Notes: generated by a model from the sequence alone, not told the origin. Counted from the first letter of the stretch, positions 20,108 to 58,461 are shown. The stretch: 58,461 bases of DNA from a virus (IMGVR_UViG_3300044678_001332:1-58461); one strand, 5' to 3'. Program-made: numbers and translations.

Positions 20108-20725
20108 ATGGCATTTTCACCAACAATATCTGCCTGTCTCAATGGATGCACAGGTATAACTTTTAAAGATACTACTGGTTTTTACAATGCTACTACTAAT
20201 GAAGGAGGTTGGAATAACAATTTAACTCTTTGGAAATTACAAGCAGATGGTTCACCACATGTTGTAACAGCAACACTATCATTAACACTTAATGGAGGAC
20301 TTCCTACAACATTTAATGTTTTAACTGCTATCCAAGGTTCTATATTTCCAACCTATACATTGTATGAGTATATACCAGTAGATACTTATGGTAACCCTGC
20401 TCTTCAAGATGGCTATTATAATGCTACATTAACTATTGTAGATGATGAAGATAATACCTATGTTACAGATGTAGACTTTGTAGTATATTGCAATGTAGCT
20501 TGTTGTATATCTAAAATGGCTGCTAACTTACCTGCTGATTCATGTGAAAAATGTGATTCAACTCAATTTGATGATTTTATGACTGCTTATGGTATTTATC
20601 AAGCATTAAAAGCTACTGCTGAATGTCAAGGTACTCAAGAATTTTATAAACTATTAACAAAACTTCAAAAACTTTGCAATTCATCATCATCTACAAGTGG
20701 TGGGTGTGGTTGTGGTTGCTCTTAA
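20108..20725 (+). CDS. Structural protein with Cys-rich C-terminus (fibre hub-like)
   Basis: ATG at 20108 (MAFSPT...) preferred over the upstream TTG; D.TGFY motif; ends GGCGCGCS. Confidence 0.55.
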
Positions 20726-20730
20726 TAACT

Positions 20731-22130: not shown

Positions 22131-22862
22131 ATGTGTACATGTTCAAGCAGTTGTAACTGCAATTCAACAACAATACCTAAAGGACCTCAAGGAGCTACTG
22201 GAGCACCAGGATCACAAGGTGTTCAAGGATTACCTGGAGACAATGGTAACTATGTAGTTCAAACAGTAGAACCTGAAGGATTAAATTGTCCTGCAGGTGG
22301 TGTTAAAATTGAGGTATTTGATGGTGTAGATGATACACTAATTAATACTACTTATGTATGTAATTTTTATAATAAAGGTATATTTTTTATTACTTCTCCA
22401 CCTGATAATTTAGATGCTGCACCTGCAAGTCCTGCAACTATTAGAAGAGTAATTGATGGTGATATTATAATATTTGATACAGCAGATTCTTTTCCAACAT
22501 TTAATGGATTAACTGGTTATAATCCTACAACAGGAGTGTGGACTTGTCCTGAAACTGGAAGATATGATTTAAGTTTTTTTGCACATTATGAATCACCAAC
22601 AACTGCAGGATGGACTGAAGGAGGATATTTTTTAGCTGGAATTTGTGGATTTGGTGCAACTGCAAATAATGTTTATGTAGTATCAAATCATACAGTAGGA
22701 GAAAATAATTTGTTTATTGAAATATCAGGAGCACTTGATAGTTTCCCAATAACTCAAGGTGATCAATTATGTTTAAAAGTTATAAACTGTACTGCTGAAA
22801 ATTACATAAGTGATGCAGGAGATACTGTTAAAATGTGTATTAGAAAATCAGGTAGCATATGA
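22131..22862 (+). CDS. Short collagen plus C1q-like fibre protein
   Basis: Cys-rich N-terminus, G-X-Y tract, and YNPTTGVWTCPETGRY resembling the C1q F.C...G.Y motif. Confidence 0.6.
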   Translation: MCTCSSSCNCNSTTIPKGPQGATGAPGSQGVQGLPGDNGNYVVQTVEPEGLNCPAGGVKIEVFDGVDDTLINTTYVCNFYNKGIFFITSPPDNLDAAPASPATIRRVIDGDIIIFDTADSFPTFNGLTGYNPTTGVWTCPETGRYDLSFFAHYESPTTAGWTEGGYFLAGICGFGATANNVYVVSNHTVGENNLFIEISGALDSFPITQGDQLCLKVINCTAENYISDAGDTVKMCIRKSGSI

Positions 22863-39090: not shown

Positions 39091-42000
39091 ATGTCAGTAA
39101 GCAAGAATACTTGGAACAAAGGATTAAATTCAGATTTATCAAAACTTAAACCTCAACAGGATAGTTACCTTGATGCTAAAAACATCAGGGTAATTACTGA
39201 TGAAGGTTCATCTACACTTGCTATAGAAAACATTAGAGGTAATGTATTTAGTTTTAAATTACCTAAAGTCAATAATACTTATAAAATTAACTTTATTAAT
39301 TTAACTGGTAGTGTTGACATTACAATTTCAAGAGGTTTAAATTCAGAAACATTTACTATACCTAATGTTGAACAAAAGGATAATGAGTTTATAGCAAATG
39401 AACTTAATGCTTTAATCCAAGCATCAACTCTACCATATAAACAATATATTATTGCTTACTTTAATTCAAGATATTTAGTAGTATATGATTTTCTACCACA
39501 ATCTTTACAATCATTAACGCAAGAAATAACTATAACAACTGTTCCTGATTGTTCAGCATTAAGAACTAATGCTGTTGATAATCATACTATTCTTGGTTGG
39601 GGATATTATAATGATAATCTTGTTCTAATTAGTTGTAATGAAACAAGTAACTCTGAAGATCCTTCTGGTGAAGAAGGGTTTGTATGGGATGCAAAATATA
39701 TTTATTTAAATGATACTACAAACAGTATTGAAAATATTGATGGTAATTATTTAAATCCAGCTTTTCATTTAAAGTATGCAGGTAAACTAAATCTATCTAG
39801 ACAGTATGCTATCAATAAACATTTAAAATGTAGATATGAAAGTACAAATACTGTAAGAATAGTTTGGACTGATTGGTATAATAATTTAAGAAATATGAAT
39901 ATTGCTGACCCTCAAGTTTGGGCTACAGTAGAAGAGTTATTATCTTATTTACCAGCACACTTACCACAGAAACCTATTGTAACTAATATTATAAATGGTG
40001 GTGGTATACCATCAGGTAAAATACAATACTTCTATAAACTATTTACTAATCAAGGTGCTGAAAGTAGTTATTCACCATTAAGTAATTTATTAATACTTAC
40101 AGGTGCAGCAGGTACTAACTTTGCTGGACCTGGTAATCCTCCATCAGGAAGTACAGCAATTGGTAAATCTGTACAAATAACTTATTCTGGAATAGATACA
40201 AGTTATGATATTATTAGAGTAGGATATGTTATTTATCAAACTCCTGATTTTCCAGAAGCTTTCTTTTTTGATGAAAAGCCTGTACCTGATGATGGAGTAT
40301 TAGTTTTAGTTCATAATGGTAATGAAAATGATATACCATTAGGATCAGCTACAGAAATAAATAATCTTAATAGACCACCAGAAGTATTTAAAACTATTGA
40401 TGTTGTAAGAAATAGATTGTTTGCTGCTAATGCTAAAACTAAATACTTTGATTTAGATGGAGAATTTGATTCTAGAGTTTATAGATATAATTCTTCTCAA
40501 GTAGCTGATTTATATAATAATGATGATACTTTTGGTACACCATCTGTACAAATAGATTATACTAATCCAATTCCTACAATAACTATTGAAGGAACTACAT
40601 TTACTCCTACTACTCAGCAAGAAGCATATGAAATATTAACTCAAGATATACCTGATACATTTGATTTAATTAATCCATTTAATGATGAAAACCCAGATGC
40701 ATCAGTAAATCCATTCTCTAATGGTAACTGGATTGCTAATTCACAGTTTAAATATCAGAGTGATGGTACAACAATAGGTGGATCAGGACCTAATATATCA
40801 TATGAGTTTGTTTATGAAACTAATATTGCTCATACAGGTAATACATATTTAAGAGGTAATATAAGTATTAATCCAAGAATTGATAGCAATGGTAACTATA
40901 TATCAGAGTTATCTGATGGATATACTTACATGGGTGGTAATAATAATTATTTCCAATCTCACAAAAGTCCTGTATTTGAAACATTGTTTACAGGATATGC
41001 TAGAGGTGAAGTATATAGATTTGGTATTTTATTTTATGATATATATGGTTATCCATCATATGTTAATTGGATAGGTGATATTAAGTTTCCATTTGCTAAT
41101 GATGATAGTGGTGACTTTGGTTTAACAGCACCTACACCTAATACTCCATCAGGACCATGCTTTATAGTTATTCCTGATCCTGAAAGAATGCCTGGAGGTT
41201 GGGATATGTTTAATGCTTTTGCATATAATAGTATAGAGTTTTCATTTGAACCATCTGGTACAGTATTCTTTACATGGAATCCTACACCAAGTAATAATGA
41301 TATACCAGGATTTGTAGCAGCATTTAATGATCCTTCAACAGGTAACACAGGTGGATTAAATGCTTTTGATCCAGGTGATGGTTCTATTATTATACAAGGT
41401 GCTAATGTTAATCAAGATATGCAAATTTTTGCAGATGGAATACCTTTTATAGCTCCATCTCAATTTGAAGATTATACTTTTTCTGCACCTACTAATGATG
41501 TTGTTTTAAAACAATTAGGTATTAAACTTTCATTAGATACATCTACAGACCAGTTTCAAGCTATTAGTGATAAGATATCTGGATGGTCTTATGTAAGAGT
41601 TAGAAGAAATTTAGAAAATAAAAGTAAACTTGGTACAGGATATTTACAACCAACCTTTGCAGGAAATATTGATATACCTAGTGGTGTAGGTGATTATTCT
41701 ATAATGCCTTATGTTAGAGATTATAATAATGATGTTAATGCTCCAACAGCATCTAGTAGCTTTTTATTTAATAGATGGGGATTTGATATAGTTACAGGTA
41801 ATGGAGGACAACTTCCATATGAAAGAATTAGATTAGGTTTTCAAATATTTAATTCTCCTAACTTTTTATTACAACAAGTAGGTCAATTTGCACAAGATGA
41901 TTTTATAAGACTAATAGGTAGAACTGAAAAGAAAGCATATAGAGTAGAATACTCCACACAAAACTCAAGTATATTATCTCCATCATTTATTAACTATGGT

Positions 42001-44013
42001 ACTGTTAATGGAGCATATGCTTTTTGGATAATGTCAGGTGATTATATATATGATTATACTGATACTACACCATTACCAAATGTTATTGATAATCAACTTA
42101 CTACAAGTGATTATTTAAATACAAATCCATTGTATCAAAATGTATTTCAATTAAATGGTTTTAAATATATTGGAAGAACCTTTCCTTCAAATACTCTTCA
42201 AAATCAACCAGCACCATTTAGTAGCATAAGATTTTTTAATATGGCTACATATAATGTTACACAATATGATACCCAATCTCAAGATAAAACATTCTTAGAA
42301 TGGGGTGCTGAAACAATACTTGTTGCATTTGATGGATCAACTTCTAATTTTCCAGATACAAGTGCTATATTTGATAATAGTGATGTAGTAGGAGAACCAT
42401 ATGGTGGATGGATGTTGTTTCCATTTTACTTAGCATCTTATGAAAGATATCTAGTTAAACAATATGGAGGTAATACTAGATCTGCTAGATATGGTAATGA
42501 GTATATATCTACAAATCACTATCTACCATATACAGTAACTACAACAGGTATTGTTGGTAACAATGTATATGGAGGTGATACATGGGTTAATTACTTTGAT
42601 TGGCAAAGAAGTAACCCTAATCCTAGTACAGGATTCTTTAATTATAATCAAGGTTATGAACCACCTCTAACAGATGATAATTATAAAATATTAGGAACAG
42701 CAGTTTACTTTCCAGCAGAATGTTGTTTTCACAGTGAGTTAAATATTAACCCTAACCATGCATCATCAAGAACTACTGATACACCTATAACTATAGATAA
42801 CTATCAATTTAATCCAGCATACTCTCAACAGAATACAACTAATACATTTTTATCTAAATTCTTTTTACAACAAAACTTAGGTGAAGAACCTCATACAATA
42901 TACGGTTCTAATCCTAAATTAGATAATGAGTTATTTGATTCTTGGAGAAACTTTTTAATTAATAATAAACTAACAGTTAATGGTAACTATGGTGAAATTA
43001 ATAGACTAGTTCAGTTTAAAGATAAATTATTTTACTATCAGAATGATGCCTTTGGTGTTGCATCTGTTGATGAAAGAGTACTTGCTAATGAAGCTGATGT
43101 TACTCAAACTCAATTAGGTACAGGTACTTTATTACAAAGATTTGACTATGTATCTACTGAAACAGGAGCTAAACATTCTTTTGCAGTAGAAGCTACAGGT
43201 TCATCTATTTATCACTATGATGCTTTTATTAATAAGTTATTTAAATACTCAACTACTAAAGGTAAAGATGGTACTTCTTCAACAGGTGTATCACCACTTA
43301 CAGATATAAAAGGTTTAAGTGGATTCTTTAGAACAGCATTTACAAATACTGAAATTAAAATAAAAGATAAAACTTTAGCAGCTGGTTCAAGAGTAGGAAT
43401 TACATCTGGATACAATTCAGAATATAACACAGTTTATTTTACATTCTTTGATGAAACTAAAGATGTACAGTATACAATAGCTTATAATGAGTTATTAGAA
43501 GCGTTTGAATCTTTTTATGATTTCTATCCTTCTTTATATATTAATATGAGAAAGAGATTCTTATCAGTAGATCCTTTAAACACCTCATCAACTTATATAC
43601 ATAATTTAGGATTAAGAAATACTTTTTACAATAACACATATCCATCACAAGTTAAATTTAGAGTTAATGAGAATGCTGACTTTGTAAAAACATTTGATAA
43701 CTTCTATATTAATACTGAAGTAATTAGTGTAGCAACAGATCAACAGTTACCTGAAACTATTACTACTTATAGTATATCTAATGACTATCAAATAGTTAAT
43801 GAAACAATTAGTAACTTTACTCAGAAGATTAGATCTTGGAGAAAACAAATACCAAGAGATGAAACTAATCCTAACTTAAATATAAAACCAAGAATATCTG
43901 ACAAATACATTGATGTATTATTTAAACATACTATTAGTGGAGGAGATAAGATATTTAGATTACATGATGTGTTAACTGAATATTCAATGAGAAGTAAAAT
44001 ACTACCTAGATAA
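39091..44013 (+). CDS. Tail stabilisation/muzzle protein (crAss-like)
   Basis: 1640 aa; N-terminal KGLNSD...Y.DA.NIR, NRLFAAN, GY.RGEVYRFGI, DSWR.F, YNE....F.SFYD. Confidence 0.75.
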   Translation: MSVSKNTWNKGLNSDLSKLKPQQDSYLDAKNIRVITDEGSSTLAIENIRGNVFSFKLPKVNNTYKINFINLTGSVDITISRGLNSETFTIPNVEQKDNEFIANELNALIQASTLPYKQYIIAYFNSRYLVVYDFLPQSLQSLTQEITITTVPDCSALRTNAVDNHTILGWGYYNDNLVLISCNETSNSEDPSGEEGFVWDAKYIYLNDTTNSIENIDGNYLNPAFHLKYAGKLNLSRQYAINKHLKCRYESTNTVRIVWTDWYNNLRNMNIADPQVWATVEELLSYLPAHLPQKPIVTNIINGGGIPSGKIQYFYKLFTNQGAESSYSPLSNLLILTGAAGTNFAGPGNPPSGSTAIGKSVQITYSGIDTSYDIIRVGYVIYQTPDFPEAFFFDEKPVPDDGVLVLVHNGNENDIPLGSATEINNLNRPPEVFKTIDVVRNRLFAANAKTKYFDLDGEFDSRVYRYNSSQVADLYNNDDTFGTPSVQIDYTNPIPTITIEGTTFTPTTQQEAYEILTQDIPDTFDLINPFNDENPDASVNPFSNGNWIANSQFKYQSDGTTIGGSGPNISYEFVYETNIAHTGNTYLRGNISINPRIDSNGNYISELSDGYTYMGGNNNYFQSHKSPVFETLFTGYARGEVYRFGILFYDIYGYPSYVNWIGDIKFPFANDDSGDFGLTAPTPNTPSGPCFIVIPDPERMPGGWDMFNAFAYNSIEFSFEPSGTVFFTWNPTPSNNDIPGFVAAFNDPSTGNTGGLNAFDPGDGSIIIQGANVNQDMQIFADGIPFIAPSQFEDYTFSAPTNDVVLKQLGIKLSLDTSTDQFQAISDKISGWSYVRVRRNLENKSKLGTGYLQPTFAGNIDIPSGVGDYSIMPYVRDYNNDVNAPTASSSFLFNRWGFDIVTGNGGQLPYERIRLGFQIFNSPNFLLQQVGQFAQDDFIRLIGRTEKKAYRVEYSTQNSSILSPSFINYGTVNGAYAFWIMSGDYIYDYTDTTPLPNVIDNQLTTSDYLNTNPLYQNVFQLNGFKYIGRTFPSNTLQNQPAPFSSIRFFNMATYNVTQYDTQSQDKTFLEWGAETILVAFDGSTSNFPDTSAIFDNSDVVGEPYGGWMLFPFYLASYERYLVKQYGGNTRSARYGNEYISTNHYLPYTVTTTGIVGNNVYGGDTWVNYFDWQRSNPNPSTGFFNYNQGYEPPLTDDNYKILGTAVYFPAECCFHSELNINPNHASSRTTDTPITIDNYQFNPAYSQQNTTNTFLSKFFLQQNLGEEPHTIYGSNPKLDNELFDSWRNFLINNKLTVNGNYGEINRLVQFKDKLFYYQNDAFGVASVDERVLANEADVTQTQLGTGTLLQRFDYVSTETGAKHSFAVEATGSSIYHYDAFINKLFKYSTTKGKDGTSSTGVSPLTDIKGLSGFFRTAFTNTEIKIKDKTLAAGSRVGITSGYNSEYNTVYFTFFDETKDVQYTIAYNELLEAFESFYDFYPSLYINMRKRFLSVDPLNTSSTYIHNLGLRNTFYNNTYPSQVKFRVNENADFVKTFDNFYINTEVISVATDQQLPETITTYSISNDYQIVNETISNFTQKIRSWRKQIPRDETNPNLNIKPRISDKYIDVLFKHTISGGDKIFRLHDVLTEYSMRSKILPR

Positions 44014-47000: not shown

Positions 47001-50000
47001 AATAAAAAAATTGGACACTATGATGAACCATTAAAAAATGATTCTTCATATGAAACTTGGAAAAAAACAGTTTTAGGAGAAAATGCTGATAGTGTAATAT
47101 CATTACAAGAATTTAAAGATGCTCATAAACAAAGTATAGAATATTTTAAAAGTATTGGCGCACCTCTTACTACAGGAAAAGAACATGGTTTGTTTATAAA
47201 AAACATACTTGCTGATAGAATACCAAATTTTACTTCTCTTCAATTTGATGATAAAGGTAGAAGACTTATATTTGATCCAGATATGTATGGTTCAGATATA
47301 CAACCAGCTGAATTGAGACAAATGGAAAAGTTTATTACAGGTGAGGGATATGATATTACTAAAATGACTCCTAAAGAAAGAATGTTAATGGAAGCTTATG
47401 CTCATGGATATGATACTTCATTAAATGAAGTATTAAGAGGTAGTAGTCAAGGTCCAGTTTCTAAATATTATTTAGAACAAGGTCAAATATTAAATGAAGG
47501 TATTTTAAAAAATAAATTTCAAAATCCATCTTTTGTAAGAAGAGGTGTACAATCAGATTATACTGTAGAACTTTTAGACCCAATAACATATAAACCAACA
47601 GGAGTAACTAAATTAAGATCTGAATTAACTAAAGGTGATACTTTTATAGATAAATCATTTTTATCAACTTCTGCAACACCTAGTTATTGGGGTCCTACAG
47701 AACTTTCAGAATTAATAGAAATACCTGGAGGATCATTACAATCTTTTGCAGTACCTGAAGCTGCTACTGCAACACGCTTTAGAGGTGAAAATGAAGCTAT
47801 ATTACCTACTGGTTTAATTAGACAAGTAATTGATAACAATCTTCACAATCATCCAGAATTTTTTGATTGGAGAGCAAAATTTAGAACAAAAATATTAAAT
47901 CCTTACGAAGATGGTGGTACTATTAATCCATACATGTATTATGCAGGTGGACCAATGCAATATAAAAGAGGTGGATTACTTAAAGATATAGGTTTAGGTG
48001 TTGCTGATTTTGCATTAAGTACTATTGGTGGTGTTACTGGTATTAAATCAATGAAAGATATTGTTAATGAAAAACAATATTCTAATGATAGATTTGATGC
48101 AGGTGCAAACTTTGCAGGTAGTCTTGGAAGTACTGCTTTAAAATTAATACCTGTTACAGCACCTATTGCAAATGCTGCAGGTGTGGTTGGTGGTGCAGCT
48201 AACAAAGCTTTTGGTATTGATGCAGCAAATTATAATCCTAATCAAGAAGTAAGTGACTTAGAAAAAGCAGGTAATATTGTTGGACAAGCTGGTAATGTTG
48301 CTAGTATGTTTATGGGTAGTACGTCAGGTGTATCAGAAGATGCTGGTAAATTTATGCAAGGTGTAGATAAAATAAATCAATTTGGACAATCACCTGCAGG
48401 TCAACTTTTAAACCAAGGACTATCTTTTGAACAAGGTGGTGATATAAATAAATTTAATAACTTTACAAACTCTATGAGAGACAGATACAACAGTTATAGA
48501 AACAAGTACTCTAGAGGAGGAAAGGTTCAAGATAATGCTGAAGAAAAACTTGAATATTTTGGTATGACTAAAGTACCTAATCATTCAGGGTTTCATTATG
48601 AAAATCCTAATGGAGGTTCATATGGAGGAACAAATGCTTCATTTGAAAAAAATGAAATTGTTTTACATGCTAAAGGTGGTCCTACTCCAGGACCTGGAGA
48701 ATTTGTTTTTCCTTCTGAAGTAAATGGTCAAAAAAACAGACCAGCATTTCTTGAATTAGATAAAAATGGTATGCCAATTCCTTTAAACATGACTATAGCT
48801 CAATTTGTAGAAAGAGAAGTTAATAAAGGAAGTGAATTTAGAAAAGAAAATTCTTTAGGAAGAGAAAGAGTAGATATGGCTAATCAAAAAGCAATGGACA
48901 TGGTAGCTTATTATGATCAACTTGATCAACAGCAAGCACAACAAAAAGAAATGATGGTTAATGGTGCTTTACAATATGCAGCTGCAGGTGGTAAGATAAA
49001 TAAAGATATTGAAAAGATTTTAAATGATGATATTCAAAGTTATATTAAAGCAGATAATTATTATGCTTATGGTGGATATCTTCCTAAAAATAAAAAATTT
49101 AACATGCCTTACTCTAATGGTGGTAAACTACCTAAAGAAGTTTTAAGAGCAAGAGTTCAAGCTCACATGTCAATTAAAGAAGCTAATTCTTATGTAGATC
49201 AATATGCTAATGGAGGATCAATGGATCCACCAACTGCTAAAAGAAGTTATGTAAAGCAAGGTTCTAATAGTATGCTAGGTAATAATTTAAATAATACTGA
49301 GTTTGGTTCTAGAATTATAAATGAATATGGTAATGGATTACCTAATGATACTTCTTATATTTATCAATCTCCTACTGAAGATTATTTCTACAATACAGGG
49401 CAGAATACTCAAAATGGTAAACCAGTATCTAATTATAACTCAGGTTCTGTAGCACCTTTTAGTGCTAATGTATATCAAGATAGAATTAAAAGATTAGCAG
49501 GTTATGCAAATGGTGGTCCTGTAGTATCTAATGTAAATCAAGACTTTGGTTTATATGCACAGAACAGAGGTGGTATGATGATGGCTAATGGTGGTATGAT
49601 GCCACAGAATGATAGTATGTCTAAACAAATAGCTGCTGCTTTGCAACAAGGTGCAGATCCTCAACAATTACTTCAACAATTACTTCAACAGTTAGTTAAG
49701 TCAGGAATGGATCCTCAACAAGCTCAAGCAATGTTAGAAAATATTATGGGTAGTATGCAAGCATCACAAACTCAAGCTCCTATGATGGCTATGGGTGGTG
49801 AAATGTATGCTCCTGGTGGATTCTTTGATAATTTACGTTCTGATTTTAACCATGGTAGAAGAATGGCATTTAACAAACCTTATAGAAATGCTTATAACTT
49901 AGCTAAAGGTTATAATACTATTAATCCTAAAAATTACCCAAATGTTTTTACAGAAGGTAATGGACAAGTAGGAGGTGAAGATTATGCTGGTTTATATCCT

Positions 50001-50726
50001 ATGACACAAGATGAAGCTACACAATACCAAGGTTATGACCCTACAAAAGTTACACCTTCTTCTACTACTAAAAGTGGATTACCAGTAGGTAATGAAGATA
50101 TATTTGGTAATGATAAATTAGGAAAAGGTTTAGCAATAGGTCAAGCTGCAATTCCATTAATAGAAGCAGGTTATCATTTGTTTAATAAACCTAAACATAT
50201 TAAAGCACCTGTTGTACAAGATGCAACTGTTAATTATGAACAATCTAGAATAAGAGATCAAAGACAAACAAATTTGACTAGAAGTTCTTATTTAAATATG
50301 TTAAGAAATTCAGGTATGTCAGCAAATCAATTTGCTGGTAATGCTAAAGATTATCTTTTAAATTCTGCTGCAGAACAAGCAGGTAGAGATGCAACAAGTA
50401 TTCAAAATGAACAAAATCAAAATGCTGTTGCTAGAGCACAAGCTGAAAATTTAAATGCTCAAAATAGATTTGCAACTGATCAATTAAATTATGAGATAGA
50501 TCAAAACAGACTTGGTAATATATTTGGTGCATTTAATAATGCAGCTACTATGGGAATGCAAGGTTACAATGATATAAAACAAAATGAATATGATAGAATG
50601 AGAGCATTGAGTACACAATCAGAAAATGTAGTACCTGTAAATGTTAATGGTAGAATATATCAAGCAACAAAAGGACCTGATGGTTATTACTTTAATGGTA
50701 AAAAAATAGCAGAATTTGGAGTTTAA
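44016..50726 (+). CDS. Multidomain putative virion cargo protein: two HExxH zincin-like domains, ADP-ribosyltransferase domain, repeated xxxGG motifs
   Basis: HELSH (44934), HELTH (45804), R-G/STS/ENE ART motifs (~47538-47795), ~19 GG motifs; positioned after the muzzle gene. Confidence 0.7.
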   Translation: MAEKNSLWKNIRKKAAQNKRTGATPKKPTKEMLRQERKIKAKKYYAGGPIGEGDDKNKALKGTNDTLIAPTLNTQIVEEEAPQWMKDKETIRPDEINFWESFNPKKWGLNDYSNYSSFNSAFRNAREAGEDEFVWNKERYNTNLIPKDISDQYWDSKKFIQDYYTNEPFIPLDTNYFDLHDFNDKLSKDKYGYTWQEYYDKVSKTPVYSKDSGRSDEEGKILDSYFDTLGLLSRSGYYSSLSDKEKSDYYTYQKSKYVDALNDPNYYFSITSQPNPKNRVLGYQHSGDKKLYASNTGNREDFTTFIHELSHKGDSKSRSSYNNESNRIPTVDTDALNKFGNKLSQKRFNYVSDPTETEARKMSTLYFMNKVLKKDISSGKIKNKDLTELYNLYNSEGGYWSSKSIPGDVRDLLELYKYQWNDLLKYLNNDFSYYKPVQKAKGGPTGNDEDPFKSKLNQGQTVGKTSQDWLANWVRSPKFAERLNQNFPAPASDLEKKIYGNKEARERASAANLKTINKRIPDVISDIYDTNFLYNTNPESNTGLLNTYRSRLGDPKSIRDFDKNMSTNPQGFTDQDGRIIITNEANTQYGPQSVGVHELTHKVSEGDKTLDKLFRGKFQTPSPDKIDANYKKDEMYPFLMQMRFDNKFQPGEEITPERLKQIRESGPNNHLFRYYNDDEISKYLNTLASNQTQAPMQYAAKGGYMYAEGGDGEDEPVTLYKKAYYNPDQDRIIPYAGSQDNEYYVTPDTPQGIDFERRLPELEITDDYNSTEDYYGNKRYIPSETGFIPNPNYKPLASGRAEPTLGPVEAALFAPVAGAVAGTMASKAVPAVVSALELPAVVGGRTIPLLTGNNILGVTGGITGANMLGSDINSGYYTSNASIEDKIARGLETGLLIGTSPGMLPAMGSAYKNVKNSLGKNKELLSNSASNQLPPPPPETFNIIDGYVPGSYVPDYASQFTPLETFNNSKFSLKDINNKIKSLKNITYKGKSIFKNKKIGHYDEPLKNDSSYETWKKTVLGENADSVISLQEFKDAHKQSIEYFKSIGAPLTTGKEHGLFIKNILADRIPNFTSLQFDDKGRRLIFDPDMYGSDIQPAELRQMEKFITGEGYDITKMTPKERMLMEAYAHGYDTSLNEVLRGSSQGPVSKYYLEQGQILNEGILKNKFQNPSFVRRGVQSDYTVELLDPITYKPTGVTKLRSELTKGDTFIDKSFLSTSATPSYWGPTELSELIEIPGGSLQSFAVPEAATATRFRGENEAILPTGLIRQVIDNNLHNHPEFFDWRAKFRTKILNPYEDGGTINPYMYYAGGPMQYKRGGLLKDIGLGVADFALSTIGGVTGIKSMKDIVNEKQYSNDRFDAGANFAGSLGSTALKLIPVTAPIANAAGVVGGAANKAFGIDAANYNPNQEVSDLEKAGNIVGQAGNVASMFMGSTSGVSEDAGKFMQGVDKINQFGQSPAGQLLNQGLSFEQGGDINKFNNFTNSMRDRYNSYRNKYSRGGKVQDNAEEKLEYFGMTKVPNHSGFHYENPNGGSYGGTNASFEKNEIVLHAKGGPTPGPGEFVFPSEVNGQKNRPAFLELDKNGMPIPLNMTIAQFVEREVNKGSEFRKENSLGRERVDMANQKAMDMVAYYDQLDQQQAQQKEMMVNGALQYAAAGGKINKDIEKILNDDIQSYIKADNYYAYGGYLPKNKKFNMPYSNGGKLPKEVLRARVQAHMSIKEANSYVDQYANGGSMDPPTAKRSYVKQGSNSMLGNNLNNTEFGSRIINEYGNGLPNDTSYIYQSPTEDYFYNTGQNTQNGKPVSNYNSGSVAPFSANVYQDRIKRLAGYANGGPVVSNVNQDFGLYAQNRGGMMMANGGMMPQNDSMSKQIAAALQQGADPQQLLQQLLQQLVKSGMDPQQAQAMLENIMGSMQASQTQAPMMAMGGEMYAPGGFFDNLRSDFNHGRRMAFNKPYRNAYNLAKGYNTINPKNYPNVFTEGNGQVGGEDYAGLYPMTQDEATQYQGYDPTKVTPSSTTKSGLPVGNEDIFGNDKLGKGLAIGQAAIPLIEAGYHLFNKPKHIKAPVVQDATVNYEQSRIRDQRQTNLTRSSYLNMLRNSGMSANQFAGNAKDYLLNSAAEQAGRDATSIQNEQNQNAVARAQAENLNAQNRFATDQLNYEIDQNRLGNIFGAFNNAATMGMQGYNDIKQNEYDRMRALSTQSENVVPVNVNGRIYQATKGPDGYYFNGKKIAEFGV

Positions 50727-50738
50727 AAAATATAAGAT

Positions 50739-52979
50739 ATGAATTTATACAAGTTTCAACCTAGACAATATGTAGATGTATTACCTGATTTACCATTAGA
50801 ATGGTTACAAGGTCAGGTTGATAAAAAACAGAATGTTATTAATGCTCAAAGAGATGAGCTTAATAAAGCTGCTGAAAACTATTTAAAATTAAACTATGGA
50901 ACTTTTGGTAGAGATCTTTATGATCAAATAAATAAAGACTACCAAGGAAAGTTTAAACAAATGTCAGAAGACTTGTTAACTAGACAAGACATTCCTGGAG
51001 TAGCATCATCATTTTCTAATTTAGTTAGAGAAGCAGCATTTGATCCTAGAATCAAAGATCTTAATAAAGAATTTGCAGCTTATCAGAAATATTTAGAAAC
51101 TAAAATGAATCCTGAATTTCATGGTGCTATAGATTTAACTCAATATGGAAAACAAATAGGTGAAGACTTTAATGTTGATCAAGCTATTGCACAGTATCCT
51201 TTAGTTAAATATGAAGATAGTATTCAACCTTATGTTGCAACAGCTGAGAAATTTAAACCTTATAAAGATGTTAATACTGATAAGTGGGTATTTAGTAATC
51301 CAATATCAGGTGAAACATTTGTTCGTAATACTAAAGAAGAAATTGAACAAGTTTCTAAACCAAGATTACAAGAATATTTTGAAAGTCAGTATTATAATTG
51401 GAACATGGATGCTAGATCTAAGTATGATAAGTTAAAAGGTACTAATGTAGATTTAAATCAATTTGATCCTAACTTTAATTTCAAAGATGAAAATTTAGGT
51501 AGAGATATTTGGAGAAAAAAGTATTTACCATATTTACAAATGGCTTATACTCAAAGAGATGAAGAAACTGAAGTTACACCAATGGGTGGAGGAAAACCAA
51601 CATCTTCAAATAATCCTAATAAACCACCAGCTGATGTTAAATTAGAGTATAACATGATGACTTCAATGTATGGTATTGGTGTTTTAGGTAATAGATTATC
51701 TACAGGTGAAGAAATAAGAACTTATGATGATGCAATAGGTAATATTCAAGATCATAAAAATAGAATAAGTACATTAGTTCGTCAAATGTTTGAAGCATCT
51801 AAAAAAGGTGATCATGCTACAGTACTTACTTTAGATAAAGAAAGACAAAATCTAATGTCAGATTTAACTACTTGGGAGTCTTGGCAAAAACTTATTGAAG
51901 AAGATTTGTATAATAAAAATTTAGGACAAGATTTAAGTAATGCTTTAAAACTTGAAAAAGATTGGATTGAAAGTCATTCAGGTCAAATTGCAGATTTTGG
52001 TGCATTAAGTTTAATTTATAAAAAACCAGTTGAACAAATAAAGAATGATATTTTTTATAAAAGAGATACTACATATGAAGGAGTTGATTATGATGAAATA
52101 GATGCTTTCTTAGAAGAAGCTAGTAAAATAAGAAGAGCTAATTTAAAAGGTGATGCATCTAAGCTTTATGAAAGGTGGGAAAAATATTTAAACTATCAAA
52201 CACAAGGTACATCATATCAACCTAATAATGATGCTTCTAGACAAAGATTAGATCAAATGGTTTTATCTTTAATTACTTCTGGTAAAAAACCTTATAACTT
52301 ACAGACTGATAAAGAAGTTTCTGATTTTAAAGCTTTACAAGAATATTTATTAAAATTGCAAGCTGAAAATGGTTCATTTAATACTAAAGGTTTAAGTACA
52401 GAAATTCTTTTAGATGAAGAAGATGGTCCTGTATTAATATTACATGGATTAAATATAGATGGTAGTAAAGGAGAAGATATTCCTAATTCTATAGAATTTG
52501 ATATTAGAGATACACCTAGTTTATTAAATGTTCTTTATGAAATAGATCCTAGTAGACAAACTCGCAATGCTTACTTTGTTGAAGCTGCAAGATCATTAAA
52601 AGAAAATAAAAACAAGAAGGGATCATTTACTTTAAATTCTTATGGTAATGTTCAAGAAGAAGTTAATTTCTCAAGAGTACCTATAGGTGATGGTAAATAC
52701 ATGTTTAAAGATTCAGACAATGTAATGTATGCTAGTTTAAATGATTTAATTCAAACTAAAACACTAATTGCTGCTGAAGAGGATAAAAATATTGAAGTAG
52801 CTAGACAAAAATTAAGTCAAGATTTTAATATGGCTGTTCAATCAGGAGATGTTGAATTAATTAAACAAGCTATGGCTAAAGCTCAAAATTTTGAAATTCT
52901 TTTAGAGAAAGAACTAAAACAGAAGCGAGAGGGAAAGGGCAAGCCTCAGGTGAAAGGTCCGTTCAACCTGGGGCAGTAA
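50739..52979 (+). CDS. Putative virion cargo/ejected protein (0-frame product)
   Basis: 746 aa, helical; position among crAss-like cargo genes. Confidence 0.65.
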   Translation: MNLYKFQPRQYVDVLPDLPLEWLQGQVDKKQNVINAQRDELNKAAENYLKLNYGTFGRDLYDQINKDYQGKFKQMSEDLLTRQDIPGVASSFSNLVREAAFDPRIKDLNKEFAAYQKYLETKMNPEFHGAIDLTQYGKQIGEDFNVDQAIAQYPLVKYEDSIQPYVATAEKFKPYKDVNTDKWVFSNPISGETFVRNTKEEIEQVSKPRLQEYFESQYYNWNMDARSKYDKLKGTNVDLNQFDPNFNFKDENLGRDIWRKKYLPYLQMAYTQRDEETEVTPMGGGKPTSSNNPNKPPADVKLEYNMMTSMYGIGVLGNRLSTGEEIRTYDDAIGNIQDHKNRISTLVRQMFEASKKGDHATVLTLDKERQNLMSDLTTWESWQKLIEEDLYNKNLGQDLSNALKLEKDWIESHSGQIADFGALSLIYKKPVEQIKNDIFYKRDTTYEGVDYDEIDAFLEEASKIRRANLKGDASKLYERWEKYLNYQTQGTSYQPNNDASRQRLDQMVLSLITSGKKPYNLQTDKEVSDFKALQEYLLKLQAENGSFNTKGLSTEILLDEEDGPVLILHGLNIDGSKGEDIPNSIEFDIRDTPSLLNVLYEIDPSRQTRNAYFVEAARSLKENKNKKGSFTLNSYGNVQEEVNFSRVPIGDGKYMFKDSDNVMYASLNDLIQTKTLIAAEEDKNIEVARQKLSQDFNMAVQSGDVELIKQAMAKAQNFEILLEKELKQKREGKGKPQVKGPFNLGQ
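52931..52974 (+). promoter_or_regulatory. -1 programmed ribosomal frameshift signal
   Basis: G GGA AAG in the correct phase, 5-nt spacer, then stem GCCTCAGGT-GAA/TTC-A-ACCTGGGGC. Confidence 0.8.
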
Positions 52980-54895
52980 GTAGCTTTAACAAAGCATTAG
53001 GATCAGTAGAACAAGACCCTAAAGAAGGTTATAGATCAACTAACCCTAACTCATCAGCAGTTGGTAAGTATCAACATATATGGGGAATACATGGAGAACC
53101 ACAAAAGGGTCAAACAATTTCTGAAATTGAAAGAGTAACAGGAGTTAAATCAAAAGAAGATTATTTAAATAACCCAGAAGCTCAAGAAAAATATCAGGCT
53201 CATTTAGAAAGTCATTATAAAAGAAATGTACCTGGATTAAGAAAAAGATTTCCTGGAGTAACTAAAGGAATTGATGATGAAGTATTAATGGCTCTTCAAC
53301 ATCTTTCAGGTTTAGGAGATGCTAGAATATATTTAGATACTTTAGAAAAAACTAAATCTTATGATGCTGCTCAACAAGCTTTAAATCAATCTATAGAAAA
53401 AAGAACAGGTGAGGCTCCTCCAACTAATAAAACAGTTTTTGAATATTTAAATAATTTTTCTGAAAATTTAGAAAAGGATAATACTCCTAAAACACCTCAA
53501 ATATTTGCTCCTAAAAAACAACCTCAATTAAATCCTAATCCTACATTTACTGCATCACCATTTGCTACACCTAAAGTTACTCAAACTAAACCTCAACCTC
53601 AAGAACCTGTTGATAGTAGATTTAGAGTATTACCAGAAGTTCTTCCTAAAATAGAACAACCTAAAACTGTTACTGAAACTAAAGATCCTAATTTTGTTGA
53701 AAAGGTTTGGACATACCTGTTTGAAAGTGATGTTCCTATTAAAGAAACTAGTAAAATAAAAGAAGCAGCTGATGGTAATCCTGTAGAAGATGAGGAGTTT
53801 GTTGCAAGTAATGATTCTAATGTAGCATTAACACCTAAAGCTACACCTAAATTATCTAATGTTAGAAGAGTAACTGAAGATCCAAAAATTAAACAAAGAA
53901 AAATAGAAGATGAAAATTTTACAAAAAATATTGGATATTCAAAAGTTAATGATAAAGTTTATAGAGGTAAGTCTCATAAAAACTTAGATTTAGGTAGTTA
54001 TTCTAAAATGATTGTTGATATGTCAGATGGTATAACAGTAACTTATCAACCTAGAAATGCTAGAAAAAATGATAGAACAGAAGTTAATAATGCAATAGCT
54101 ATTACTGATTATTTATATGACTTTGACTTTACAAATAATTGGTATGATAAACAAGCTGATTATCAAATTACAAAATTAAAAGAAAGCTTATTTAAACCTA
54201 AAGACTGGGAAAAAAGAACTTATATTAACGCAGAAGGTAAAAGAGTAAAATATGGTCCATGGTCTAAAAATTGGGATAATGCTTTAGATGGTAGAAAATT
54301 TGTAACTGTACGAGAACCTTTAGGTAATAATAAATATAAAATATCTATTAAACCTATTGATAATCTCACTGAAAAAGATTTTGAAGAGTCTACAATATAT
54401 AGACAAGGGTACGCTAAATTATCTGATCTTGATATAACACCTGATCAGAAAAAAATTAAATTATTTGCTAAAAAAGATGCTTTTGTTGGTCAAGGACTTC
54501 CTTTTAGAGATGAAAATAATAAAGAACATGGACTAAGAGTAAGTGGAGGTAAGGGTAATGTGAGTGTAAATTTAAAAGGTGAAAATGTAAAAGGATATTT
54601 AAATATATCTAGCCTTAATCAATTTGGTGCTTATTTAGGAGGTACTGTTACTATTATATCTGAAGATGGTAAAATAGCTAAAAAAGTTAGTGGTAGTTTA
54701 AAAGACATTTTAGAAACTGCTTTCTATATTAAAAAACAAACTGGTAGTAAAGAAGTTTACTTTTTACAAAGCGATGCAGGTAGTATGAATATAAAAGCTG
54801 ATGCTAATAATGGTAAAATTACACCTGCTCAATTAGCAATTTCTAGAAACCAAGAACCTCAAGCAGGTGCTGCAGAGATACTTTTAAATGAATAA
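52937..54895 (+). CDS. -1 frame extension: lysozyme/lytic-transglycosylase-like domain plus C-terminal region (includes ORF 53288..54895)
   Basis: Frame open from 52895 to the stop at 54895, first ATG at 53288. Upstream of that ATG it encodes ALGSVE...GY...NPNSSAVGKYQ...YLNNPEAQE. Confidence 0.7.
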   Translation, partial: GQASGERSVQPGAVSSFNKALGSVEQDPKEGYRSTNPNSSAVGKYQHIWGIHGEPQKGQTISEIERVTGVKSKEDYLNNPEAQEKYQAHLESHYKRNVPGLRKRFPGVTKGIDDEVLMALQHLSGLGDARIYLDTLEKTKSYDAAQQALNQSIEKRTGEAPPTNKTVFEYLNNFSENLEKDNTPKTPQIFAPKKQPQLNPNPTFTASPFATPKVTQTKPQPQEPVDSRFRVLPEVLPKIEQPKTVTETKDPNFVEKVWTYLFESDVPIKETSKIKEAADGNPVEDEEFVASNDSNVALTPKATPKLSNVRRVTEDPKIKQRKIEDENFTKNIGYSKVNDKVYRGKSHKNLDLGSYSKMIVDMSDGITVTYQPRNARKNDRTEVNNAIAITDYLYDFDFTNNWYDKQADYQITKLKESLFKPKDWEKRTYINAEGKRVKYGPWSKNWDNALDGRKFVTVREPLGNNKYKISIKPIDNLTEKDFEESTIYRQGYAKLSDLDITPDQKKIKLFAKKDAFVGQGLPFRDENNKEHGLRVSGGKGNVSVNLKGENVKGYLNISSLNQFGAYLGGTVTIISEDGKIAKKVSGSLKDILETAFYIKKQTGSKEVYFLQSDAGSMNIKADANNGKITPAQLAISRNQEPQAGAAEILLNE

Positions 54896-54908: not shown

Positions 54909-54931
54909 CATAATAATCATTATTGTATAAT

Positions 54932-57900
54932 ATGGATGAATTAGACAAATTGTTAGCAGAGGGTAAGATTACAGCCTCTGAATATGCTAGACTTGTAAGA
55001 CAACAAACAGAAAGCCAAAGTGCAGATTATAGAAAGAGTGAAGTTTTAGAAGCTGCTGCAGGTATTCAACAATTTTATAAATCACATTTAGGTATAGATC
55101 CTAGTGACATTGCTTCTGGTCAACCAGAATATCAAATGTCAATGTCACCTGAAGAACTTGAAACTTATACTTCAAGAGGTATTACTCCAAGTACTTACAG
55201 AGATTATGAAGATGATAGAGCTGAAGCTCAGTCATTTGCTGACAAACTTGGAAATGGTTTAACTAAACTTATTGGTAAATCTGCTACTGCAGTAGCTGGT
55301 GGTATTGGTATGGTACCATCAATAGCAGCTAATGTTGCAGGACAGTTAGAGGATATAGTTAATGGTGACAATACTTCATTCCATGAAATATATGATAATT
55401 TTTATTACAGAGCATTAGATGAAGCTAATGCAGCAATGGATGAAGCATTACCTCATTATGTTACAAGAGAAGAAGAAAATGCTTCTCTATTAAATTCATT
55501 AGGTACTGCTAACTTTTGGACTAATGACTTTTTACAAGGTGCTTCATTTGTTATAGGTGCAATAGCAACTGAAGGTTTAATGACTCTTGGTGCAGAAGCA
55601 TCAGGTCTTAGAAACTTAACTAGAACATTAGATGCTGTAAAAAAAGGAACTAAGGTTGATGATATTGCTGGGTTAATGGGTAGGTCAGCAACTGCTCAAA
55701 CAGGTTATGAAGCTGTTACATTAGGTAGACAGATAATAACAGGTGCTGGTTATGAGTCTTCAGTAGAAGCATTATCTTTTGTTAAAGATGCTGAAAGACA
55801 ATGGTTAGATGATTATAGATCACAACACTTAGAAGAACCTACTGAAGAAGAATATGCTAAAGCAATGGAAGAAATTTATTCAGTTGCTAATGGTGTATTT
55901 GGAATGAATATGTTAGTTGTTGGTACAACTCAAGCTAAAACCTTACCAGGATTATTTGCACCTAAATTAGCTAACTCAATTAGAAGAGTATTAGGTAAAG
56001 GAGAAATAGCTGAAGCATCTCAAATAATTCAAACATCTAAACTATCTGCTAAACAATTAGATAGAGCTGCTAAAAACTTAGGTAAAACAGTTGATGAAGT
56101 AAAAGCAATACCTAACATAGCTAAAGAAGCTACTTATAGTAAATTAGGTAAGATTACAAGTAGAACTGCTAGAGGTTTAGAAGGTGCTGTATTTGAAGGT
56201 GGACAAGAAGGTTTACAGAAAGCAATTAGTTATAGTGCATTAGATTACTTAAATGATAGAATGGACCCTGCAGCAAATGAAGACTTTATGGATTCATGGA
56301 TGTATGGATTAACTAAAGCTTTTGGTAATAATGCTGAAAGTTGGAAAGAAATATTTATTGGTGCATTGTTAGGTTCTGTAGGTGGACCAGGTGGTAAAGG
56401 TGGATGGCAAGGTGGAATTTATGAAGGTTTTAGAGACAGAACTAAATCTGAGAACTTTCAAAATGTATTAAACCTTGCTAATAATTATTCTAAAAACTCA
56501 GAAGGTATTTTAAATAATTATTTAAAGCATTGGAACCTAACTTTAAATCTTCAAGATAAAAAGGACAGGGCTTATGATAAGAATGACATGTATGACTATC
56601 ATTCTCAAGAAGCTAAAGAAGTTTTTAATTATTTAAACTTCATGAAGAAAATGGGAAGACTATCAGAGGTTGATGAACAACTTAGTGATAGTCTTAACAA
56701 GTTAAATAAGAAACAATTTGAAGAACTGTATGGTTATAAAAACTTAACTAATACTGAATTTACAAAACGTAAAGCAGAATTGTCTCAAAAGATAGCAAGA
56801 GAAATTAGTGATGTTTCTGAGTCTGCAGATAAAGGTGCTTCTATTTACAGAGGTGGAGATCAGGATGTTTTAGATGGTATTGCATATACTATTTATGCTC
56901 ATAAGAATGCTGATAATAGAGAAAGTAAGATAGCAGAAGAAGTTAGTAAGCTTGTAGGAATTATAGATCCTAGAAGTTTAGTTGAAATATCTAGAGATAA
57001 CCAAAGATTAAAATTAAAAGATGGTTGGTTATACACTTATAAAAGTAAACTTAAAGGTTTAAAGGCTGCTAAAAAAGCTTTAGAAAACAGAATGTTATCT
57101 GGAAGTGTTAATAAAAAAGATGTACAAATAGATGAGCTTGAAAAGAAAATTAAACAGAAAGAAAAAGAACTTAAAGCTCTTTTGAAAGAAGAATATAATA
57201 CAAGAAAGGCTTTAAGAAAATCTCCAATAACTCCAGAATATGAATTAGATTATGATGAGTTTGAAGAAAAGGTAAACAAGCAAGCTGAGTTTCTTGAAAA
57301 ACTTGAAAAGCATTATGAAACTGATGGTATAGATAAATCAGAAATAGAACAGAAACTTGCTGACCTTAAGAAATTAGCAAGAGATAGAGAAAAGTATATT
57401 GGTGAATTCAATAGACTTCTTACATCAGAAGGTCTTAAAGAACTTGAAACTAGTATTGAAGGTTTAAGAAAAGAGTTTGCCAAAGAGCAGGTTGATGCTA
57501 CTACTATGGCTATAATGGAAGTTGAAAGATCAAAAAAAGCTTCTCAAAGAGTTTATAAAGCACAAGAACTTGCATTTAAATTAAGAGCTAAAAGACTTTC
57601 AGGAATTGAACAGCCTATTACTGAAGATCTAAATGCTGAAACTATTGATACTCTATCTGATAATGCAAATCAGTATTATACTCAGATGATAGCTATAGCT
57701 AACAGTATAGTTGGTGCTAGTCAAAATAATGATGATAAGATTGCAGCATTAGAAAGTTTAATTAAACAGTTTGCTGAAGAAGTTGCAAATGTTCCAGAAG
57801 AATTAAGAAGAGATTATGAAATCCTACTTGATAGATTTAAAACACAAATAGAAAGTTTAATTAATTCTTTAAAGAAAACACCTGGTAGTAAATCAGGTCA

Positions 57901-58461
57901 AGTGTTATCTAGTATTAATAAACTGTTTAATCTATTTAAACCTAAAGAAGATAGAAACTCTAATAAAGGTAAACTAGAACAATTAATAACTAATGGTACT
58001 ATTCTTTCTACTATTAGAAGTGAAATGTATTTTGAATTAATACCTTATCCTGAAGGAGGATCATTAGTAGAACCTCATGATGAAGATGGTTCTGTTATAA
58101 AATCTGATGTAAGATTTAGAAAAGGTATAAAGATAGGTGATCAATACTATGGTATTAAAGTAGCTTATAAACTACATCCTAGTAAATATGTAAACTTTAC
58201 AAATGAATCTGGTCAAACAGAAACTCTAACTGAAGTTACATTGGGATATATTAATGACCCTAAAAGAATTATGGTTAAAAAACCAGATGGTTCTTATGGT
58301 GAATTAAATATTAATGATCCTAATGAAGTAAAACAATTAAACTCTGCATTTGTAAATCCAGTAACAAATGAATTTACAGAATCAGGAAAAGAGTTTGTTC
58401 AAGAATATATTAAATTACAAGCAGGATTTGAAAAACTATTAAAAGCTTTTGGAGATAAAAA
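54932..58461 (+). CDS. Giant putative cargo protein, partial (>1170 aa, runs off window)
   Basis: Manual translation MDELDKLLAEGKITASEY...RAEAQSFADKLGNGLTK...; spot checks find the frame open to KAFGDK at the window end. No RNA polymerase motif seen in this part. Confidence 0.75.
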   Translation, partial: MDELDKLLAEGKITASEYARLVRQQTESQSADYRKSEVLEAAAGIQQFYKSHLGIDPSDIASGQPEYQMSMSPEELETYTSRGITPSTYRDYEDDRAEAQSFADKLGNGLTKLIGKSATAVAGGIGMVPSIAANVAGQLEDIVNGDNTSFHEIYDNFYYRALDEANAAMDEALPHYVTREEENASLLNSLGTANFWTNDFLQGASFVIGAIATEGLMTLGAEASGLRNLTRTLDAVKKGTKVDDIAGLMGRSATAQTGYEAVTLGRQIITGAGYESSVEALSFVKDAERQWLDDYRSQHLEEPTEEEYAKAMEEIYSVANGVFGMNMLVVGTTQAKTLPGLFAPKLANSIRRVLGKGEIAEASQIIQTSKLSAKQLDRAAKNLGKTVDEVKAIPNIAKEATYSKLGKITSRTARGLEGAVFEGGQEGLQKAISYSALDYLNDRMDPAANEDFMDSWMYGLTKAFGNNAESWKEIFIGALLGSVGGPGGKGGWQGGIYEGFRDRTKSENFQNVLNLANNYSKNSEGILNNYLKHWNLTLNLQDKKDRAYDKNDMYDYHSQEAKEVFNYLNFMKKMGRLSEVDEQLSDSLNKLNKKQFEELYGYKNLTNTEFTKRKAELSQKIAREISDVSESADKGASIYRGGDQDVLDGIAYTIYAHKNADNRESKIAEEVSKLVGIIDPRSLVEISRDNQRLKLKDGWLYTYKSKLKGLKAAKKALENRMLSGSVNKKDVQIDELEKKIKQKEKELKALLKEEYNTRKALRKSPITPEYELDYDEFEEKVNKQAEFLEKLEKHYETDGIDKSEIEQKLADLKKLARDREKYIGEFNRLLTSEGLKELETSIEGLRKEFAKEQVDATTMAIMEVERSKKASQRVYKAQELAFKLRAKRLSGIEQPITEDLNAETIDTLSDNANQYYTQMIAIANSIVGASQNNDDKIAALESLIKQFAEEVANVPEELRRDYEILLDRFKTQIESLINSLKKTPGSKSGQVLSSINKLFNLFKPKEDRNSNKGKLEQLITNGTILSTIRSEMYFELIPYPEGGSLVEPHDEDGSVIKSDVRFRKGIKIGDQYYGIKVAYKLHPSKYVNFTNESGQTETLTEVTLGYINDPKRIMVKKPDGSYGELNINDPNEVKQLNSAFVNPVTNEFTESGKEFVQEYIKLQAGFEKLLKAFGDK

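Follow-up and report, generated by a model that had tools for sequence, protein, structure and literature searches.

A candidate programmed -1 frameshift that would join a lytic-transglycosylase-like domain to a cargo-position protein in a freshwater crAss-like phage

How is an enzyme domain translated when its reading frame offers no start codon ahead of the catalytic residue? The question is raised by the virus record IMGVR_UViG_3300044678_001332, a 58,461-base stretch of DNA analysed here at its full length (the window), in which an open reading frame (ORF) that we call ORF A is overlapped at its 3' end by a long open frame lying one base back. A preliminary description of this DNA had proposed that some ribosomes pass from the one frame into the other and add a cell-wall-hydrolase-like domain to a cargo protein. 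Having examined the junction itself, its counterparts in related phages and the encoded proteins, we consider a programmed -1 ribosomal frameshift at the 3' end of ORF A, with products of 746 and 1385 amino acids (aa), to be very probable.

ORF A (50739..52979, + strand) encodes a mostly helical protein of 746 aa that belongs to no known family. Its codons start at positions divisible by 3, and the heptamer at 52931..52937 (+ strand) is therefore read GA-G GGA AAG, in the exact X XXY YYZ phase of a -1 slippery site. A spacer of 5 nucleotides (nt), GGCAA (52938..52942, + strand), separates the heptamer from a putative stimulatory hairpin (52943..52974, + strand; RNAfold), a GC-rich structure of 12 bp with one bulge and a 7-nt loop, in which CCYCAR at the base of the stem pairs with YUGGGG. 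The zero-frame stop TAA (52977..52979, + strand) follows 13 codons past the slip site and would be bypassed by shifted ribosomes. In the -1 frame a TGA occupies 52892-52894, after which, from 52895 on, no stop is met until 54893-54895; counted from 52937, the extension (52937..54895, + strand) comprises 652 codons and the stop. The first ATG, GTG or TTG in this frame is the ATG at 53288..53290 (+ strand), 117 codons after 52937. This is the start taken by ORF callers, and it lies inside a helix of the predicted enzyme domain, 279 nt past the putative catalytic Glu codon. The predicted products are thus the 746-aa protein and one of 733 + 652 = 1385 aa, with the junction ...REGK-GQASGER.... The preliminary description had this layout right: the in-phase heptamer, the 5-nt spacer and the stem are all present where it had placed them, the -1 frame is open from 52895 with no start before 53288 (GTG and TTG included), and the products of 746 and ~1385 aa and the junction peptide are as it gave them.

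The heptamer is a plausible place for ribosomes to slip. GGGAAAG occurs twice on the + strand of the window, against ~2.4 copies expected by composition, and the junction copy is the only one in phase within a long ORF; it is one of 111 in-phase X XXY YYZ sites over 14,626 codons, almost all the others consisting of A and T only. PMC5009743 describes G_GGA_AAG as highly shift-prone in E. coli. GGGAAAG is also listed as the lambda G/GT slippery sequence (Table 1 of PMC3296357), as the preliminary description had stated. Its location would suit a domain boundary in the predicted protein: in the structural model of ORF A (predicted local distance difference test, pLDDT, 72.9; predicted template modelling score, pTM, 0.43) the last helix ends at residue 731, just ahead of G732-K733, the two residues of the slip site, and disorder is predicted for the zero-frame tail (pLDDT < 50, residues 733-746).

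The hairpin, with arms at 52943-52954 and 52962-52974, has a predicted stability of about -17 to -20 kcal/mol (RNAfold). Its segment has a GC fraction of 0.45-0.52, compared with 0.25-0.30 in the flanks and a window mean of 0.31, so the earlier remark that a GC-rich stem stands out in an AT-rich genome is justified. The 48 nt after the heptamer form the most stable fold of all 731 in-frame 48-nt windows of ORF A (mean -4.4, standard deviation 2.3), and 34 of 9,736 stretches across the whole window fold as stably or better. The stability derives largely from the unusual local composition, and the window hairpin on its own would not be convincing.

The decisive evidence against chance is conservation in relatives. 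To collect these, viral and metagenomic contigs were scanned for the downstream protein and for ORF A; the scan of viral contigs with ORF A for close relatives found none, and an alignment-based contig scan added L034 alone. The resulting set consists of nine lineages, namely the window, L001, L004, L005, L006, L013, L022, L023 and L034, the junction of L012 being identical to that of L004. In each full-length relative an ORF A homologue of 717-785 aa is followed by the same domain in the -1 frame, L006 being cut at the contig end. Pairwise identity among the lineages is 14-52% for ORF A and 25-60% for the domains, and silent sites must therefore be long saturated. All nine lineages nonetheless carry an in-phase G GGA AAR (GGGAAAG in eight and GGGAAAA, still X XXY YYZ, in one), the sole in-phase X XXY YYZ site common to them all. 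The heptamer, in the form NNG GGA AAR, is retained against codon usage: codons ending in G make up just 5.8-9.0% of the ORF A homologues, GGA is a minority Gly codon in six of the seven ORFs counted, and AAG accounts for 6-20% of Lys codons in these ORFs. In a seven-sequence alignment of ORF A, G732 and K733 are among just nine invariant columns. The -1 frame opens 0-13 codons ahead of the heptamer; its upstream stop, a TGA, abuts the heptamer in L004, and the gap is one codon in L005 and L013 and two in L034. The 13 homologues that databases hold for ORF A (31-98% identity, 733-769 aa) all end in ...GK followed by a variable tail of 12-17 aa. The layout that the preliminary description had wished to see in related phages is thus kept in 9/9 diverged lineages.

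A hairpin accompanies the heptamer in each of them. In minimum-free-energy (MFE) folds of the 48-55 nt past the heptamer it begins 4-7 nt downstream in 9/9 lineages, with energies of -13.2 to -24.2 kcal/mol; CCYCAR/YUGGGG forms the base of the stem, and the inner pairs vary among lineages. MAFFT alignments of the junctions matched the 3' arms inconsistently, and for this reason we used a covariance model instead, built from five lineages with the window excluded. Among the 11 matches of this model in the window at E <= 10, the top one is 52931-52976 (20.9 bits, rough E 0.0022; the next scores 15.8 bits), and the model recovers the held-out L013 (37.7 bits), L004 (27.1) and L023 (14.4). In the nine-row alignment 90.8% of cells pair, compared with 80.9 +/- 2.5 in shuffles (0/500 reach it), and compensatory changes have altered four of the nine hairpin pairs on both sides. 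The covariation score is 0.318 against 0.175 in shuffles (0/500), and all measures drop when the partners are slid by 1-3 columns.

Other candidate elements at or around the junction were tried and set aside. The second GGGAAAG (44311-44317, in an ORF of 2236 aa upstream of ORF A) is out of X XXY YYZ phase and scores 10.3 bits with the covariance model (E 0.69). AAATTTT at 52886 runs directly into the -1 frame TGA, while AAAGGGC at 52934 and an A7 run in L001 are not conserved. Transcriptional slippage was dismissed on reasoning, since neither run exceeds three bases (G3 and A3). An intrinsic terminator was rejected as the identity of the hairpin on the strength of a terminator scan of the junction, which found none, and Rfam returned no family for the junction.

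What would the shift add to ORF A? The 117 codons skipped by a start at 53288, together with the next ~75, make up one conserved domain (52961..53512, + strand; extension residues ~9-192), which is matched at E <= 0.001 by 214 proteins of 62 to 4,950 aa among 1.84 billion cluster representatives. A profile of 52 sequences matches the lytic transglycosylase gp144 of phage phiKZ (3bkh, 9xps) at E 4e-8, which answers the profile check that the preliminary description had called for. The window residues E25-Q26 (E-S in most relatives) and GKYQH align to IESAFDY...SSATGWFQF of gp144. The putative catalytic residue E25 (53009-53011, + strand) is thereby aligned to gp144 Glu 115 (native numbering), which we take to be the catalytic one; the invariant GKYQH motif occupies 53063-53077 (+ strand; extension residues 43-47). 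Across the 52 sequences G43 and Q46 never vary, and conservation of E25 reaches 90% or more. An AlphaFold (AF2) model of the domain has a mean pLDDT of 89.2 and shows an alpha-helical fold of the lysozyme type, in keeping with the goose-lysozyme-like fold of the gp144 family; its top Foldseek match is 3bkh (E 0.02). In VIA-align comparisons it matches Cj0843 Slt of Campylobacter with Z 11.1 (root-mean-square deviation, rmsd, 3.2 over 141 residues) and phiKZ gp144 with Z 9.8 (rmsd 3.4 over 143 residues), and the 33 best rows are lytic transglycosylases without exception (Z 8.4-11.1). The ATG at 53288 corresponds to residue 118, inside a helix, and a product started there would be without the Glu and GKYQH. 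The 117-codon stretch that the preliminary description took to be lysozyme- or SLT-like, and truncated by that start, thus appears to be the first half of a lytic-transglycosylase fold, putative catalytic Glu included. Database entries for relatives often begin at internal codons in the same way, frequently without the catalytic Glu.

The remainder of the extension (53537..54892, + strand; 452 aa), which yielded no usable match in the ESM Atlas, consists of a Pro-rich linker and a C-terminal part of 400 aa that belongs to no known family. The C-terminal part is 62% identical in L001, and tblastn found no counterpart in L004, L005, L006, L013, L022 or L023. The -1 ORFs of L004, L013, L022 and L023 run to 190-196 codons, too short to hold it. 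Since these four frames carry the enzyme domain alone, the conserved unit, as far as sequence comparison defines it, is ORF A, the frameshift signal and the transglycosylase, to the exclusion of the C-terminal part. Searches of ORF A and the 652-aa extension against Pfam and PHROGs gave no family, ORF A had no match among PDB sequences, and blastn and tblastn of the junction region and ORF A against GenBank phages returned nothing but one match to the domain, in Leptolyngbya phage Lbo-JY46.

Some observations concern the wider history of these parts. The L001 ORF A is closest to that of L023 (39%), and the L001 transglycosylase domain is closest to that of L034 (46%, against 28% to L023); judged by these identities, the junction seems to have been retained through recombination between lineages. 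The same domain is found near the N-terminus (~residues 70-215) of proteins of 4,057-4,950 aa (P0012, P0017, P0026, P0049 and P0108), and in L007, L008 and L010 it forms part of long ORFs that start at an ATG of their own.

Taken together, we propose the following course of events at the junction. Most ribosomes would read ORF A to the TAA at 52977 and release the 746-aa protein. A fraction, held up by a hairpin 5 nt ahead that is hard to unwind, would pause on the heptamer with GGA occupied by tRNA-Gly and AAG by tRNA-Lys; these would slip one base back to GGG AAA and continue in the -1 frame from the GGG at 52937 through 54892. The resulting 1385-aa protein would consist of ORF A residues 1-733, a short linker, the phiKZ-gp144-like lytic transglycosylase domain, the Pro-rich linker and the 400-aa C-terminal part. 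We infer the ribosomal shift itself, and with it the packaging into virions and the role at entry: the long form may be co-packaged with the short form and cut peptidoglycan locally as the internal proteins are ejected. Only some of the subunits might then bear the domain, as the preliminary description had supposed.

Several points weigh against this account or temper the evidence for it. The phage is uncultivated, and the frameshift is predicted from its DNA. The nine lineages are related, and lineage counts are not counts of independent events. The window hairpin has a z of just -1.4 against dinucleotide shuffles of its local GC-rich piece, and the shuffle z of -1.4 to -2.6 in five relatives is not significant either. 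The alignment made with the covariance model was itself fitted to the structure proposed here; in L023 the 3' arm that the model pairs is not the one in the MFE fold, and for a longer piece of L004 the MFE fold is a different structure. The window domain is below threshold for both Pfam SLT (PF01464) and Transglycosylase-like (PF06737); of 13 homologues, seven match PF06737 below threshold (13.7-22.5 bits, the cut-off being 27) and one matches PF01464 with 14.9 bits. As the Pfam thresholds are not reached, we have filed the domain as a homologue of the gp144 catalytic domain; judged by profile and model it is a putative gp144-like transglycosylase, and not a member of PF01464 or PF06737.

We weighed three rival explanations. 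ORF A and the transglycosylase could be two separate genes with no frameshift between them, the second started at a non-canonical codon or by termination-reinitiation after the ORF A TAA, and the heptamer and hairpin kept for some other reason, such as pausing, mRNA stability or coupling. Four of the nine lineages do have a possible start between the hairpin and the domain, ahead of the catalytic Glu (GTG in L001 and L034, TTG in L013, ATG in L022). Some database entries (P0165-P0167, P0168) begin just upstream of the domain, which might thus also, or instead, be made separately; in more distant phages it stands in ORFs with their own ATG (8/14 loci examined); and no in-frame fusion of ORF A with the transglycosylase was found among candidates of 410-1306 aa or of 1307-3730 aa, the latter search being weak. 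However, the candidate starts in those four lineages differ in place and codon, and the other five, the window included, have no ATG, GTG or TTG from the opening of the frame to the catalytic Glu; by eye, the window -1 frame from 52937 to 53011 is also without CTG, ATT, ATC and ATA. Separate genes would, moreover, leave unexplained both the in-phase NNG GGA AAR kept in 9/9 lineages against a strong codon bias and the -1 upstream stop that hugs the heptamer, and we regard this explanation as quite improbable. The change of frame could also be spurious, the product of a one-base assembly or sequencing error or of a recent mutation that split one 1385-aa gene: runs of G and A are error-prone in some sequencing chemistries, and the window is a metagenomic record estimated to be 60% complete. 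Against this, contigs from runs of three other studies (X3, 52909-53400; X4, 52649-53234; X5, 52877-53160), none of them a possible source sample, bridge the junction with zero gaps and at most one substitution, so that the indel about which the preliminary description had been cautious is not there. Eight other assemblies, at 14-52% protein identity, change frame at the same heptamer; the downstream frame is intact and its catalytic residues conserved; and 13/13 database homologues of ORF A stop 12-17 residues past GK. Assembly error and gene decay are contradicted by these observations, and the chance that either accounts for the junction is negligible. A last alternative accepts the shift and changes its weight: it could be the main route, or be set by the state of the host, with the long form as the principal product and the 746-aa form as a by-product. 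The hairpin is strong in all lineages (-13 to -24 kcal/mol), the zero-frame residues past GK make up a short and variable tail that is predicted to be disordered, and frameshifting at E. coli dnaX reaches ~50% with a stem-loop; the same heptamer in lambda G/GT, by contrast, yields a few per cent. We think it rather unlikely that the long form predominates, and retain the minor -1 frameshift as the preferred reading.

The bridging contigs offer two further observations. X3, X4 and X5 all carry C, not A, at 52908. Another X3 contig (record 3) follows the window through the heptamer (52908-52944) and diverges at 52944. The zero-frame reading of this variant resembles the ...GK.KQWTVRPSNPL tails of P0154, P0155 and P0163, and its 30 letters, taken with the two preceding window bases, contain by eye a different 8-bp inverted repeat in the same place.

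What kind of virus carries this junction, and what might ORF A do in it? The window has a GC content of 31%. It encodes a crassvirus muzzle protein (39091..44013, + strand; PF25731, E 1e-127; PF25729) and a homologue of crAss001 gp47, an RNA-polymerase-associated virion protein (54923..58459, + strand; 24% identity over 745 aa, E 2e-22), whose gene runs past the window end, and near-identical DNA is present in lake-water and freshwater metagenomes of several studies. By these gene and habitat matches the window is therefore a freshwater crAss-like phage. The gene order is muzzle, 2236-aa ORF, ORF A, extension, gp47 homologue, and is the same in six relatives. The 2236-aa ORF (44016-50726), situated between the muzzle gene and ORF A, has no Pfam or PHROG family and no BLAST match to crAss001 gp45-gp50; parts of it are kept upstream of ORF A in five relatives.

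The comparison with crAss001 bears on the claim that ORF A is a cargo protein. In PMC10172136, mass spectrometry places crAss001 gp45 and gp46 among the virion cargo, and the two are suggested to make up the ejection channel. Like ORF A and the extension, the genes for these proteins (cargo C1 and C2) are two ORFs directly upstream of the gp47 gene and downstream of the muzzle gene, and their lengths are 842 and 534 aa, against 746 and 535 aa (counted from the ATG) here; crAss001 differs in having no gene at the position of the 2236-aa ORF that the window places between the muzzle gene and ORF A. Gene order agrees with the claim, and no similarity to gp45 or gp46 in sequence or profile goes with it: the ORF A profile gives hhalign probabilities of 0.4 and 0.2 against gp45 and gp46, BLASTP and phmmer return no match, the C-terminal part of the extension has no similarity to gp46, and a Foldseek search of the PDB, in which solved gp45 fragments were sought with an ORF A model of moderate confidence (pLDDT 72.9, pTM 0.43), gave nothing at E <= 0.001. 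We infer from position that ORF A encodes a virion-internal, cargo-position protein. If it is cargo-like, ejection would deliver the wall-cutting domain of the long form to the periplasm, as happens in T7 gp16 and phiKZ gp181 with domains encoded in frame. Searched with the transglycosylase profile, the crAss001 genome yields nothing at E <= 0.01, and the crAss001 structural paper makes no mention of peptidoglycan, lysozyme, transglycosylase or frameshift (PMC10172136). As a detail of that genome, gp45 and gp46 overlap by 8 nt (L032 4509-4516; NC_049977.1 44508-44515).

Elsewhere in the window, a tRNA-Arg with anticodon TCT (1001-1073, - strand) is the sole tRNA and the sole Rfam match at gathering level. 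An ORF at 20674-22119 contains collagen triple-helix repeats (PF01391, E 3e-19), and the adjoining ORF 22131-22862 gives a weaker, sub-threshold collagen match. The highest GC content and the strongest folding in the window are found at ~20980-21750, inside the collagen-repeat ORF. The TTG start of this ORF at 20674 overlaps the preceding ORF, and the ATG at 20732, right after the stop of that ORF, looks the likelier start. Two RNA runs contain a small share of the window (0.08-0.10 of sampled words).

How does the proposed system relate to known ones? The closest parallel is the lambda G/GT tail-assembly chaperone, which uses the same heptamer, GGGAAAG, for a -1 shift near the 3' end of a virion-morphogenesis gene and likewise makes a short major and a C-terminally extended minor product. 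It differs in that the upstream gene here encodes ~750 aa rather than a small chaperone, that the extension here is a putative enzyme domain, and that a strong conserved hairpin follows the site here, whereas lambda G/GT is not known to need such a downstream structure. The window phage is, moreover, crAss-like and podovirus-like, and therefore has no tape-measure system. In genes 10A/10B of the T7 group a frameshift near the 3' end likewise extends only a subset of structural-protein copies, at a slip site and with a stimulator that differ from those here; there it is the capsid shell protein that is extended, by a segment not known to have enzymatic activity. PMC13370021 describes the same principle of an extension on a subset for K1F gene 10.

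With regard to the enzyme, the nearest relative is the virion-borne lytic transglycosylase phiKZ gp144, which the window domain matches by profile (E 4e-8) and by fold (Z 9.8). A gp144-like domain is also carried by phiKZ gp181, a giant virion protein, and a transglycosylase domain occurs in T7 gp16, an internal core protein that is ejected. In phiKZ gp144 and gp181 and in T7 gp16 the domain is in frame and present on every copy; here, if our proposal is right, it would be reached by recoding alone.

The mechanism and the enzyme family are each known; no earlier description appears to exist of the two together in this gene context and phage group. Full-text literature searches, in which most papers were judged by title and the opening of the abstract, found no frameshift in crAss-like or other Crassvirales phages; a search for a programmed ribosomal frameshift in a phage ejection protein found none; titles and opening lines of abstracts gave no related literature on a phage frameshift with a lytic transglycosylase; and a 2016 review of recoding, in the part covered, has no mention of transglycosylase, lysozyme or ejection. 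If true, no earlier recoding event would be on record for crAss-like phages, as far as these searches show, and -1 frameshifting would have a new use, that of equipping a fraction of an internal, ejected virion protein with an enzyme domain. The shift would provide a concrete candidate for the means by which crAss-like phages pass the peptidoglycan layer. It would also mean that gene calls for this clade are systematically wrong, the domain entries starting at internal codons. The heptamer-plus-hairpin element is short and directly testable, including in Bacteroidota, where frameshift stimulators are little known.

A more speculative reading goes one step further, and we offer it as a tentative possibility that we would not ourselves expect to hold. 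The frameshift may set a stoichiometry, such that, of the ~dozen copies of the internal protein that is ejected first, a few end in a trailing peptidoglycan-cutting head, with the efficiency of the shift tuned by host tRNA-Lys modification. If true, this would supply the wall-breaching activity so far unassigned in virions of the crass type. The domain would then be a portable module, delivered in this freshwater clade by recoding, which places it at the C-terminus of ORF A, and encoded in frame in large proteins of other phages. Because the efficiency would depend on the modification state of host tRNA-Lys, the physiology of the host would tune how well armed the progeny virions are.

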